A stretch of 64,000 nucleotides of DNA, taken from IMG/VR virus record IMGVR_UViG_2775507097_000001, positions 29,192 to 93,191 of that record; one strand, 5' to 3'. Each line of letters begins with the position of its first letter. Position 1 is the stretch's first letter. This document shows, piece after piece, positions 28,587 to 59,438 of this stretch. The stretch comes from a virus. Its lineage: Duplodnaviria > Caudoviricetes. A program made the position numbers and the translations under genes. Under the pieces are notes generated by a model. It saw only the letters and a list, made by a program, of their open reading frames with translations, was not told where the DNA came from and made no database searches.

Positions 28587-29360
28587 TCACGCCACTTTAC
28601 GGCGCCCTTCAGCGAGCGACCTGAGATCGGATAGCAAGTAGAGGCTCACGCCGTCGTCGTCTACCACGAAGGGTTTCAGCTTGCCTCGGTGTTGCCATAC
28701 GGCCGCCGTGTTGTGGCGGATGCCCAGGAGACTGGTTGCTTCCCTGAGGGTGGACAGGTCCGGCTGGAGGGGAGGCCCGGGTGTTACGGCAGCAGTGGCG
28801 GGTCTGCGTTCCAGCCCCGCCAGCGTGGGCCATTCCGGGTCCGGGGGACCGAACTGATCCGCCACAGCTGCAATGTGCGCATCTAGCGCTTCATCGCGAC
28901 GGAAGTACTCTCCCCTGCTGGTCACCCGGATGTTGCGGAATTGCTGGTGACGCAGCGACTCCCCTTCGCGGCCGCCGGGTTCCCAGGCAAGCACCTCGTC
29001 GGGGAGCAGTGCTTCGAACCTCTTGTACGGGCTGGTTGTCGTCCCGATTTTCACGAGGCGCCCGCGGAGGGCGTAGTACACGATCGATGCGGGGATGCGC
29101 CCCGGCTGGCGTGCGGCTGCCAGCCGCTGTTGCTCCGCAAACTTCTCCCGACCCGCCTCTACGGCTGCGCCAACCTCTTGCATCGTCAGCGTTCCCCGCT
29201 CTGTGCGCTTTTGCTGGAGCTGGACTGCGATGAAGGTGAATGCCGGGTCGTCTGTGTCGATCAAGTCCATGAGGGTCTGGATACTGCGCCGAACACCATC
29301 TCCGACACGGATCCTCTCCTGCCAGTCTCGGGACAGGCGAGGTCGCCTAAGCTGTGGCAT
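28587..29360 (-). CDS. GIY-YIG/T5orf172-like domain protein with C-terminal HTH
   Basis: VYY.....VKIGTT....R...E...H.QF......GEYF; C-terminal LREA..LLGI..NT...W..RGKL. Confidence 0.75.
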   Translation of the reverse strand: MPQLRRPRLSRDWQERIRVGDGVRRSIQTLMDLIDTDDPAFTFIAVQLQQKRTERGTLTMQEVGAAVEAGREKFAEQQRLAAARQPGRIPASIVYYALRGRLVKIGTTTSPYKRFEALLPDEVLAWEPGGREGESLRHQQFRNIRVTSRGEYFRRDEALDAHIAAVADQFGPPDPEWPTLAGLERRPATAAVTPGPPLQPDLSTLREATSLLGIRHNTAAVWQHRGKLKPFVVDDDGVSLYLLSDLRSLAEGRRKVA

Positions 29361-56581: not shown

Positions 56582-57007
56582 TCACGCCTGTGCAGTTTGG
56601 GGCGGCCGAGCCCAATACCCGGCCTTGGCCTTGGCCTGACGACACTCCGGGCAGCGGCACCCCTGGTTCCGGTACGTAGCGGCAGATCCGTGCTTCAGCT
56701 TCGGGTCGCGTCCCTTCAGTAGGGCATCGTCCAGTTCACGCCTGAACAGCGGATTCTTACGGGCGAAGCTGTGGATCTGCGGTCCGGGAACTCCGAGGAT
56801 CCCCTCTATCTCCCGGAAGGTTCGCCCCTTGCTGACCATGGCGAGCACCCGCTTGCGCAGGTCGATAGGGAACACGGCGCGGGCAATCTGTCGCGTGCGC
56901 TTGCGGTCCTGCGGCTTGCGTTTCTTCCGGCACGCGTCACAGCGGCTGTAGCTGGTGTGCGTGAAGTCGCAGCAGTCATGGCACTTCTTAAGGGGCGGTT
57001 CGCTCAC
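56582..57007 (-). CDS. Basic Zn-finger/HTH protein
   Basis: Cys-rich N-terminus, HTH (GRTFREIEGILGV), HG..TY...GCRC..CR. Confidence 0.65.
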   Translation of the reverse strand: MSEPPLKKCHDCCDFTHTSYSRCDACRKKRKPQDRKRTRQIARAVFPIDLRKRVLAMVSKGRTFREIEGILGVPGPQIHSFARKNPLFRRELDDALLKGRDPKLKHGSAATYRNQGCRCPECRQAKAKAGYWARPPQTAQA

Positions 57008-57452
57008 GCCTCGTTCCTCCGGGCAGTTCGCTTGGATCGGTAAGCGCCACGTTGTCGGCATACGCGATGCTCAGGGCTGGCACCTCCTGCGCGATGCGCG
57101 CAACGACGGCCCGGTGCCAGGAGGCTGGGAAGTCGGCTTCGGGATGCGCGGCGTGGTACTCCGCGTCGCTCCGGTAGGTGATGAGGCCAGGGTCGGGAAT
57201 GTCCATCAGCTTGTCCACGGCGCCCCCGATGAACTCTCCAGTGCGACGCTCCAGGTCCTCGATGGCGAGCCGGACGCCGTCGGGGATCGGGTACTTGCCC
57301 TGCTCCCAATGTCGAACGGTGCGTGAGGAGACGCCGAGGTGGGCGGCAAGCCAGTCGCCGGTGAGGCCGAGGAACTCGCGAACGACCTTGAACTCTGCGT
57401 CCGTCATGCGCTCGTCCTCGGGCATGCCGGCCGGGTCGGTGTACTCGGGCAT
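56988..57452 (-). CDS. Aca2/YdiL-like (DUF1870) HTH regulator
   Basis: MT..E....R..L.L....A...GVS.RT...WE.G...IP..V HTH plus the L..Y....EY....P....W...V.A C-terminal domain, matching the Aca2 layout as recalled. Confidence 0.78.
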   Translation of the reverse strand: MPEYTDPAGMPEDERMTDAEFKVVREFLGLTGDWLAAHLGVSSRTVRHWEQGKYPIPDGVRLAIEDLERRTGEFIGGAVDKLMDIPDPGLITYRSDAEYHAAHPEADFPASWHRAVVARIAQEVPALSIAYADNVALTDPSELPGGTRRERTAP

Positions 57453-57472
57453 CGGAGACTCCAATGAGGGAG

Positions 57473-57496
57473 GCCCCGGCTGGGGGGTGCCGGGGC
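57473..57496 (-). terminator. Stem-loop between the acidic gene and the aca2-like gene
   Basis: GCCCCGGC-N8-GCCGGGGC. Confidence 0.6.
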
Positions 57497-57511
57497 CAGA
57501 GTGGGGCGCTG

Positions 57512-57823
57512 CTAGGCCTTCTCGACGGTGACGATGTAGGCGTTGTCCGTGACGTCCCAGTCGCCGACGGTCTTCCAGCCACTCGCGGCCAGGAGGGCTT
57601 CCGTCTCGGTCTGAGCGTCGTCGATGTCGCCGTCGCGGGCGTCGACCGTGGTCACGGCGTAGAACTTCTGGTCGCCCTGGGAGGCCCAGACGGGGGTCTC
57701 GTTGCCCTCTTCATCCTGCTTGTAGCTGATGGCCTGGTCTTCGATGACGGTGACGTCCATGCAGGGCTGGTCAAGAGCGGAGGTGTCGTTGACGAGCCAG
57801 GCGGTGAAGTGGGTGAGGGCCAT
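57512..57823 (-). CDS. Small acidic protein; candidate anti-CRISPR / anti-defence protein
   Basis: 103 aa with 21 D/E against 5 K/R; first gene behind a strong promoter and upstream of the aca2-like gene. Confidence 0.6.
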   Translation of the reverse strand: MALTHFTAWLVNDTSALDQPCMDVTVIEDQAISYKQDEEGNETPVWASQGDQKFYAVTTVDARDGDIDDAQTETEALLAASGWKTVGDWDVTDNAYIVTVEKA

Positions 57824-57876
57824 GTCCGGGTCCTTCCGGCGGGGTCTGGGGCTGATCCCCTGACCTCATGACCAGA

Positions 57877-57905
57877 ACTCTAGCTTCCTACTTTAGGAAG
57901 CGCAA
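57877..57905 (-). promoter_or_regulatory. Housekeeping-sigma promoter with overlapping palindromic operator
   Basis: -35 TTGCGC, 17 bp, -10 TAGAGT; GCTTCCTA-CTT-TAGGAAGC (57883-57901) fills the spacer. Confidence 0.8.
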
Positions 57906-57921
57906 GGGTTATGGCGTCACA

Positions 57922-58269
57922 TCACCCCTCGAGGTAGCCGAGCTCCGCATCTGGCCGGCAGTGGATGCAAGCCTCCACCCCACCCGCAATCGCCCGCCGA
58001 ACCGTGTCGCTGTCCACGCCCTTCACCCGGCTCGACTTCGCCGCGATATGGCAGTCCCCGAGGTGCACAGCCACCGGCATCGCGTCCCGGTTCAGGCCGT
58101 ACTCGATCAGCCAGTCCGGCGCCGGCGGCCGCGCCCGCTCACCCCGCTGCCTCTCCTCCTCCCGGAGCAGCACCGCTTTCTTCTTCGCCCGCACCCGTTC
58201 CAGGGACAGCACCAGATACGTCTCGATCGCTTCGAGTCGCGGCAGGTCAGGCGGCAGATCATCGTGCAT
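57922..58269 (-). CDS. DUF6233-like protein
   Basis: LPPDLPRL, VH.GDC, AC.HCRPD..LG. Confidence 0.82.
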   Translation of the reverse strand: MHDDLPPDLPRLEAIETYLVLSLERVRAKKKAVLLREEERQRGERARPPAPDWLIEYGLNRDAMPVAVHLGDCHIAAKSSRVKGVDSDTVRRAIAGGVEACIHCRPDAELGYLEG

Positions 58270-58277: not shown

Positions 58278-58287
58278 GTGTAGGCAC

Positions 58288-58328
58288 AAAAAAAGAAGGG
58301 CCCGCCGCTCCGCAGAGCAGCAGGCCCC
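58288..58328 (-). terminator. Intrinsic terminator ending the right-arm leftward operon
   Basis: GGGCCTGCTGCTC...GAGCGGCGGGCCC-TTCTTTTTTT. Confidence 0.8.
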
Positions 58329-58362
58329 TCTCCACCTCCCAAGTGTCCCCACACCGTACGCC

Positions 58363-59013
58363 TCACTCCTGGTACGGGTGAAGTACCGCGTCCACCCTCG
58401 CGGCGACCGCGGCCGCACGCTGGGGATCCCGGGCCTTCGGAGCGGCCGCCAGCGTCGGCACCAGCCACGTCGGGTCAAGGACGTACACCGGGTCCGCCAT
58501 CCCGGGCACCCGGACGTCCAGGTGCCCGCCGGACACCGGGGAACCGTGCACCACCAGCAGCGGCAACACCTTCACCCCCGGCAGTCCGAGTGCCCGGGAT
58601 ATCCGTACCGCGTACCCGGCGACCTTCTCCACCTGGCCGTGACGGTCCTCGTCCCCGCAGTACACGCGACCGCGGACAAGCCTGGTGGTCCAGTTCCGGC
58701 GCCACGCCTTCGTATCCAGCACCACCACCGCCGTCCCGCACGGGGAGACGAGGACCGTGTCCACGTTCCACCGGGCCCCGGATAATCGGAGGTCGTGCCG
58801 GATCGTCCAGCCCGCCCGTACGAGGGGCGCAAGGAGGGCTTCGGTGACAGCCTCCCCGGCCGCTCCGTGCGCCCACAGGGCCGCCTGGGAGTCCGCGCGG
58901 GCGGCCGCCGGATTCAGCCCCGCCCACGCCGTGACACGCCGCCACACACCCCGCCGGGCGTGCGCACGCAGCGCTGCAGCCTTCGCCGCCGCCGAGTTCC
59001 GCGGGGCGCTCAC
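58363..59013 (-). CDS. NERD nuclease-related domain protein
   Basis: GA.GE, HDLR.....NVD.VLV.P.G..V..LDTK.W. Confidence 0.85.
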   Translation of the reverse strand: MSAPRNSAAAKAAALRAHARRGVWRRVTAWAGLNPAAARADSQAALWAHGAAGEAVTEALLAPLVRAGWTIRHDLRLSGARWNVDTVLVSPCGTAVVVLDTKAWRRNWTTRLVRGRVYCGDEDRHGQVEKVAGYAVRISRALGLPGVKVLPLLVVHGSPVSGGHLDVRVPGMADPVYVLDPTWLVPTLAAAPKARDPQRAAAVAARVDAVLHPYQE

Positions 59014-59438
59014 CGGTCCCCCTCCAGCAGCCTCTTCAGGAACGCTTCCCGCGCCGCGGACCCCTCGAAGCACTGAATGGCCCACGCCAGGGAGGTCCGG
59101 ATGCCCGCAGCGATGCCACCCTGCGTGGCCCGGCCCTCTTCCGCGCCCGGCTTCGGGGGCTGCGCGGCACAGGCGGTCATCCTCTGGAGATCGGCCTCGA
59201 GTTGGGCCTTCAGCCGTACGTACTCGGTCGGGACAGGCCCGCGGAGCGTTCCCGGCTGCTCCGGAGCAGCGCGGTCTTTCCAGTCATAGCGGACCAGGAG
59301 CAGCATCCACCCGCGGCTCGACAGCACCCGCCGTACCGGCTCATACGGCGTCGACCTCGCCAATGTGACCCGCACAGCCTCAGGGTTCTGCTTCTCCCAC
59401 ACAGACAGCCGGCAATCCCGACCCAGACGGATCCTCAT
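59010..59438 (-). CDS. Hypothetical protein
   Basis: Coupled ORF. Confidence 0.6.
   Translation of the reverse strand: MRIRLGRDCRLSVWEKQNPEAVRVTLARSTPYEPVRRVLSSRGWMLLLVRYDWKDRAAPEQPGTLRGPVPTEYVRLKAQLEADLQRMTACAAQPPKPGAEEGRATQGGIAAGIRTSLAWAIQCFEGSAAREAFLKRLLEGDR

Follow-up and report, generated by a model that had tools for sequence, protein, structure and literature searches.

The 64,000-nucleotide stretch of viral DNA analysed here (positions 29,192 to 93,191 of IMG/VR record IMGVR_UViG_2775507097_000001; hereafter the window) carries a small operon on its minus strand. It comprises a promoter overlapped by an inverted repeat, a structured leader, a gene for a 103-residue acidic protein, and a gene for a helix-turn-helix (HTH) regulator of the Aca2 family. 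On balance, we read it as an acr-aca2-type accessory operon under autoregulation by Aca2, borne by a Streptomyces phage or phage-plasmid of about 93 kb; its first gene product, the cargo, would most likely neutralise a host defence protein or a nucleic-acid-handling protein. The acidic protein is a fair candidate for an inhibitor of bacterial defence. The regulation is of a known, published kind, and only the cargo family is new. The elements of the operon are the following.

57900-57905, minus strand: -35 hexamer TTGCGC, read from the sequence; about 35 related loci keep TTG(C/A/T)N(C/G) in this position.
57883-57901, minus strand: putative operator, a perfect 8+8 inverted repeat of 19 bp, GCTTCCTA-AAG-TAGGAAGC, read from the sequence and from comparative loci.
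57877-57882, minus strand: -10 hexamer TAGAGT, read from the sequence; TANNNT is kept in all aligned loci.
57843-57865, minus strand: leader hairpin 1, GGUC-A-GGGG / loop AUCAG / CCCC-A-GACC, from the RNAfold centroid, with its core GGGG-ATCAG-CCCC at 57860-57848.
57826-57839, minus strand: leader hairpin 2, CCGG / loop AAGGAC / CCGG, with 100% of cells paired in the aligned leaders.
57512-57823, minus strand: cargo gene, an open reading frame (ORF) for a 103-residue acidic protein of family A; GC content at third codon positions 0.92.
57472-57497, minus strand: intergenic GC-rich hairpin GGCCCCGGC/GCCGGGGCC with a 9-bp stem, an 8-nt loop and no U-tail, read from the sequence.
56988-57452, minus strand: aca2-like gene for a predicted HTH repressor of 154 residues that ends in the dimerisation domain typical of Aca2, an assignment based on profile, sequence and fold.

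Profile, sequence and predicted structure confirm that the HTH protein is a true member of the Aca2/YdiL family. It reaches 33.7 bits with PF08965 (Aca2_YdiL, formerly DUF1870), above the curated cut-off of 23.8, over profile positions 1-107 of 118. Its best sequence matches in the PDB are four Aca2 entries, including 8W35, 7VJO and 7B5J (E ~3e-7). A tblastn search against phages finds gp30 of phage ZF40 (E 3e-7, 32% identity), encoded directly downstream of gp31. We take gp30 to be Aca2, because the top matches among solved structures are ZF40 Aca2, and gp31 to be AcrIF8, from the acrIF8-aca2 operon. With the AlphaFold2 (AF2) model of the protein (predicted local distance difference test, pLDDT, 90.9), the top Foldseek matches are again ZF40 Aca2 (7VJP, 7VJQ, 7VJO and 7B5J; E 2.5e-6 to 1e-5, 29% identity), and YdiL (1S4K) ranks after them. 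The model fits ZF40 Aca2 with a target template-modelling (TM) score of 0.79-0.83 and a root-mean-square deviation of 2.3-2.6 Å over 116-117 columns, C-terminal dimerisation domain included. The two-domain Aca2/YdiL layout that a first-pass annotation of this DNA had proposed is thus borne out by PF08965, by the PDB sequence matches and by Foldseek.

The promoter hexamers are 17 nt apart. The palindrome at 57883-57901 fills the whole spacer together with the last two bases of the -35 hexamer, so the operon's own promoter is overlapped by an inverted repeat. In the first-pass annotation, the promoter was called near-consensus and its spacer a perfect 8-bp inverted repeat. The hexamers, their spacing and the perfect arms are all present; the repeat does not lie wholly inside the spacer, as it overlaps the -35 end. 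The first label is too strong by Escherichia coli rules: the hexamers match at 7 of 12 positions, and a sigma-70 scan gives no call. Streptomyces -10 elements follow TAG(A/G)(A/G)T, which TAGAGT fits, and the label holds by Streptomyces standards only.

A palindrome with at most three mismatches is expected by chance 0.11 times per window. The pattern GCTTCC-N5-7-GGAAGC occurs seven times in the 11.7-Mb genome, about the chance number, and among these seven copies only that of the window is AT-rich at its centre and set in a promoter. No second copy of the operator or of the leader was found in the window or in the genome; the window has one of each. For comparison we gathered 13 loci carrying the acidic gene, 12 of them distinct, and 47 loci on viral contigs with an Aca2 homologue. 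Where Aca2 is at least 50% identical, nearly all loci have a single palindrome of the form CTTCC-N-GGAAG, flanked by a TTG-type -35 and a TANNNT -10. Conversely, the palindrome is absent from four family-A loci that lack Aca2 (L007, L010, L014 and L015), and L013 has a different palindrome. Across these loci, palindrome and leader go together with the aca2 gene and not with the first gene. The suggestion that the palindrome is an Aca2 operator fares well in this comparison, since in about 35 loci it accompanies aca2, irrespective of which cargo is present.

Changes in the palindrome are accompanied by changes in the regulator, which indirectly supports operator binding and repression by Aca2. 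In L030 and L035 the operator CACCCTAATTTAGGGCG is paired with the recognition helix RTVRSWEQGRY instead of RTVRHWEQGKY, and in L042 the operator GGTCGTAAATTACGACC is paired with RSVQRWE. The L030 and L035 pairs look like a natural specificity variant: at L030:2075-2134 and L035:2166-2226, the operator TTCCTAA..TTAGGAA is replaced by CCCTAATTTAGGG alongside His-to-Ser and Lys-to-Arg exchanges in the recognition helix of Aca2. Leader hairpin 1 of L030 differs too, with GGGA/TCCC instead of GGGG/CCCC.

About 25 nt after the promoter, the related loci share a near-invariant leader, GGTCAGGGGAACAGCCCCAGACCCC-N-CCGGAAGGA(A/C)CCGG-NN-ATG. The small hairpin GGGG-ATCAG-CCCC that had been noticed in the 5' untranslated region is present at 57860-57848 and can be extended to 57865-57843. 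A second hairpin (57839-57826), overlooked in that reading, holds the ribosome-binding site inside its loop and ends 2 nt before the ATG. When both hairpins are imposed on 29 aligned leaders, 97.9% of the cells pair. Compensatory double changes occur in four pairs: GGGA/UCCC (L030) in hairpin 1, and CUGG/CCAG (Gilgamesh) and UCGG/CCGA (L022) in hairpin 2. None of 500 shuffles reaches this level of pairing and compensation, and slid registers collapse. No Rfam family matches the leader. We see moderate support for a conserved two-hairpin motif beside the ribosome-binding site.

A survey of the genes upstream of Aca2 homologues shows that the slot between leader and aca2 holds several unrelated small acidic proteins. 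We set the cargo start at the ATG after hairpin 2 and clustered the products of 35 loci by BLASTP. Family A occupies the slot in 22 of the 35, a count that includes family C, which joins solely via the fusions of L022 and L028. Family B (TTSYGTW...GDEFIG) is found in eight, and a basic protein of 168-176 residues with an N-terminal HTH_17/MerR-like motif, here called X, is the first gene in six. Six cargoes are singletons, gp86 of phage Gilgamesh among them. Every protein encoded immediately 5' of aca2 has an isoelectric point (pI) of 4.1-4.6. Families A and B and Gilgamesh gp86 are mutually unrelated by hhalign profile comparison, and none of them matches a Pfam or PHROG family. Family-A cargoes are 53-58% identical, as against 66-84% for the adjacent Aca2 proteins. 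A swappable acidic cargo under a conserved switch is the guilt-by-association pattern used to find anti-CRISPR (Acr) proteins, and the survey supports that pattern here. As the switch is conserved and the small acidic cargo interchangeable and fast-evolving, we regard the locus as acr-aca-like.

Two side observations concern the same slot. Cargo and regulator are fused in single ORFs of 315-329 residues in P0085, P0095 and L040 (L040:1898-2887). The fused frame opens at the leader ATG, encodes an acidic N-terminal domain and continues into the Aca2_YdiL domain, and the N-terminal domain of P0085 is family A; these fusions are reminiscent of Acr-HTH fusions. Protein X is the first operon gene at L019:1311-1817, L024:1293-1799 and L026:1547-2077, and in L027, L031 and L032. 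It also lies 5' of family A in two loci without Aca2 (L010:3438-3980 and L015:3288-3977). One possibility is a second regulatory role for X, another a partnership with the acidic proteins.

The stem-loop reported between the acidic ORF and the HTH gene is likewise present, at 57497-57472. Each of 29 related loci has a strong GC hairpin, of unrelated sequence, between its last cargo gene and aca2; that of Thermobifida phage P1312 has a T-tail and resembles a terminator. This hairpin may act as a partial terminator or a 3'-end stabiliser and so keep Aca2 below the cargo.

Among the closest known systems is the acrIF8-aca2 operon of ZF40 (PDB 7B5J, 7VJO-7VJQ and 8W35), as described in PMC6765145 and PMC13551039. 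There, too, a small gene is followed by an Aca2-fold HTH gene, an inverted repeat lies over the promoter, and a structured 5' leader of two hairpins adjoins the ribosome site. Binding to the leader RNA, with a block of translation, has been shown for ZF40 Aca2 only (PMC13551039, citing Birkholz 2024). The regulator of the window is 29-32% identical to ZF40 Aca2 with a TM score of 0.80, but it is longer (154 residues), with an N-terminal PPGMPEDER extension, and its operator has another sequence. The cargo is unrelated to AcrIF8 and more acidic (pI 4.05 versus 5.4). Unlike the ZF40 operon, that of the window has a strong intergenic hairpin before aca2, and it comes from an actinomycete host in which no cas genes were found.

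Other counterparts have been published. An "actino-motif" RNA of Aca2 operons is already described (Feussner et al. 2026, PMC13551039, citing Birkholz et al. 2024 Nature). Those operons are actinobacterial, with a promoter DNA motif and an RNA motif just after the transcription start, as in the window. The leader of the window is likely identical with the actino-motif. Many genes downstream of the motif are without known function and are proposed there as anti-defence candidates, a nomination that has the same basis of conserved switch and interchangeable cargo; the text consulted does not name family A. The first-pass annotation overrated the novelty of the operon, since an actinobacterial leader motif is already in print for Aca2 operons; its regulatory logic offers a well-resolved example and otherwise nothing new.

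Two phages provide further counterparts. Operator type, leader and an Aca2-like gene are shared with gp86-gp87 of Streptomyces phage Gilgamesh and gp045-gp044 of P1312, the Aca2-like proteins being 68% and 38% identical, respectively. The first gene of the Gilgamesh unit differs from that of the window, gp86 being an unrelated acidic protein. P1312 differs as well: its leader has three hairpins, its intergenic hairpin is T-tailed, and its regulator is 286 residues long. The P1312-type cassette is seen in P1312 itself (L003:2041-2140) and in L045, L046 and L049; two of its leader hairpins are of the form GGGG-loop-CCCC and one lies around the ribosome-binding site, and its Aca2-like protein has a C-terminal extension of about 150 residues.

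The operon might work as follows. Upon entry or induction, the promoter would fire and yield the acidic protein together with less Aca2, encoded behind the attenuating hairpin. A dimer of Aca2 would then bind the GCTTCCTA-N3-TAGGAAGC operator that fills the -35/-10 spacer and turn transcription off. By analogy with ZF40 Aca2, it may also bind both leader hairpins and so mask the ribosome site, which hairpin 2 carries in its loop. The 103-residue cargo would meanwhile, early in infection, bind and neutralise a host defence protein or another nucleic-acid-handling protein of the host.

The cargo is as acidic as it had been described, with 21 D/E and 5 K/R at 57823-57512, and a pI of 4.05. With 59 nt between its stop codon and the start codon of aca2, it is a small protein whose gene immediately precedes an aca gene on a mobile element, a phage or phage-plasmid. 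Family A falls into 84 clusters at 90% identity; at 50% it has 120 representatives, and none is annotated. The carriers with names are Streptomyces, and most others are metagenome or sequencing-run assemblies. The family is marked by an N-terminal HFTAWL and by GW..G.W near the C-terminus, on either side of an indel-rich middle. Its AF2 model (pLDDT 89.4) has the order beta-beta-beta-alpha-beta-beta.

Searches with family A led only to other uncharacterised proteins. No family was found in Pfam, PHROG, PADLOC or NCBIfam, and tblastn of the acidic protein against 50,697 phage records returned nothing. Comparison of the model with the PDB gave no credible fold match (Foldseek best E 0.05; VIA-align wide search best Z 4.7). 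Matches in BFVD are uncharacterised actinophage proteins only, including the 387-residue A0A3Q9R5A0 and a 137-residue protein that is probably P1312 gp045; those in the ESM Atlas are hypothetical actinobacterial clusters only. P1312 gp045 itself is a distant homologue of family A (hhalign 89%, E 2e-6). The one weak hit, TY-Chap3 (E 0.036), was considered for family A and rejected, as it did not reach its cut-off and the fold search gave no backing.

Ocr and ArdA, which are DNA-mimic anti-restriction proteins, and AcrIF2 and AcrIIA4 are small, strongly acidic proteins expressed early by phages or plasmids. The protein of the window shares their small size and strong acidity (pI 4.05, 21 D/E), but no similarity to them was detected in sequence or fold. 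Its model is a beta-sheet with one helix.

Several points weigh against a counter-defence operon. Aca2/YdiL-like regulators have other roles as well. Family and fold searches detected no resemblance of family A to known Acr, Ocr or ArdA-type proteins. The folding energy of the leader is no better than that of shuffles (z = -0.67); leader variation is low, and the covariation amounts to few events among closely related sequences. Cas1, Cas7e, Cse1 and Cas3-HD were sought in the 99.98% complete host genome, and none was found. A set of 199 spacers, compared with the contig of the window (C29) and with the collected related loci, gave no full-length match and just short chance ones; these spacers came from arrays beside cas3 in three other carrier genomes, whose own elements were covered as 8-kb pieces only. 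Finally, 3% of Aca2-like proteins adjoin known acr genes (PMC9410906).

Some of these results would suit a cargo that serves, within the same cassette, as an early or accessory factor of host takeover or maintenance and not as an immune inhibitor. Such a factor might, for instance, act against a nucleoid protein, RNA polymerase or a nuclease such as RecBCD/AdnAB, or in superinfection exclusion on behalf of the resident element. The cargo families are orphans without an anti-defence match, and the host has no CRISPR-Cas genes. Some family-A genes have no Aca2 beside them and stand at the ends of prophages or behind a different HTH gene, and the Gilgamesh unit sits between terS and lysin A. However, swappable, unrelated acidic proteins under an Aca2 switch follow the pattern of counter-defence and not of core functions (PMC13551039). 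We hold a takeover factor to be a serious but less probable explanation.

The first-pass annotation had proposed that the acidic protein inhibits a host defence such as type I-E CRISPR-Cas, or restriction. An anti-CRISPR acting specifically on type I-E Cascade or Cas3 would be a subset of the explanation we prefer. A regulator of the Aca2 family and a small acidic protein agree with it, and type I-E-like arrays and cas3 do occur in some family-A genomes. We found no link, however: the host has no cas genes, and no host CRISPR-Cas system targeting the element (self-targeting) was found; no spacer among the 199 matches the element or related loci; and the fold searches gave no similarity to a known Acr. 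Cas3-HD is present in just 4 of 9 genomes carrying family A, with no obvious enrichment. Such a share is about the usual frequency of cas3 in Streptomyces. Given a host without cas genes, this share of Cas3-HD and the spacer result, the anti-CRISPR version gains no specific support; we judge it improbable, and CRISPR-Cas is one possible target of the cargo among others. Very improbable is a toxin-antitoxin-like or partner-switch module, in which the acidic protein would be a toxin or a modulator of Aca2 (anti-repressor or co-repressor): Aca2 does resemble the MqsA and HigA2 antitoxins (PMC9410906) and natural fusions of acidic domains with Aca2 exist, but we reject this reading because the cargo is interchangeable, with unrelated proteins paired with almost identical Aca2 proteins and operators, and because family A also occurs alone, and a pI of about 4 without an enzyme signature is unlike type II toxins.

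Within the preferred counter-defence reading, we tentatively extend the proposal to the Aca2 slot as a whole. It could be an exchange hotspot for counter-defence genes on Streptomyces and Kitasatospora phage-plasmids of about 85-98 kb. Family A would then be a new inhibitor of an actinobacterial defence other than CRISPR (such as restriction, BREX/Pgl or a nuclease), and families B and C, gp86-type proteins and the singletons would be further undescribed inhibitors. Anti-defence proteins of actinophages are almost unexplored in the literature, as far as we found, and Streptomyces has many defence systems that limit both phage work and genetic manipulation. The pairing of promoter, operator and leader with aca2 gives a precise handle with which to harvest candidates; the roughly 35 loci already contain at least eight unrelated families of acidic cargo. 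Were restriction, BREX/Pgl or CRISPR to be blocked by family A or its neighbours, these proteins would become useful tools where actinomycetes are recalcitrant to transformation, and the Aca2 paradigm would be extended experimentally to high-GC Gram-positive bacteria.

The window is the last part of the 93,191-bp contig C29, from an actinomycete genome of 11.7 Mb in 98 contigs with a GC content of 69-70%. Genes for a portal protein and a tape-measure protein are present in the window, and the element is therefore a phage or prophage. The ends of C29 show neither an overlap nor a terminal inverted repeat. Most contigs on which this small operon occurs have lengths of 82-98 kb. Besides C29, carriers of the cassette measure 92,719 (L015), 96,179 (L011), 96,937 (L012), 89,706 (L005) and 97,860 bp (L018), the last being the complete Kitasatospora plasmid pCMC57_01. 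Streptomyces plasmids of 88-92 kb carry portal homologues with 40% identity. The similar sizes of the cassette carriers and the portal homologues on plasmids suggest a phage-plasmid family.

A possible third gene, overlooked in the first-pass annotation, overlaps the end of aca2 by 20 nt.

56582-57007, minus strand: ORF of 141 residues with a GTG start at 57007 and GGAGGA 7 nt before the GTG.

Its product has a Cys-rich N-terminus, an HTH-like centre and a C-terminal GCRCPECR motif. The PHROG matches are weak, fall on the C-terminal motif and are of HNH type. The ORF was not found downstream of aca2 in loci L001-L017, and its place in the operon is uncertain.

On the other side of the operon, a canonical strong intrinsic terminator with a 19-pair stem and a T-run lies at 58282-58333 on the minus strand, directly after a NERD-domain gene (58363-59085). 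The start of the DUF6233 gene must therefore lie downstream of this terminator, near 58269, rather than at 58335, where the longest ORF begins.

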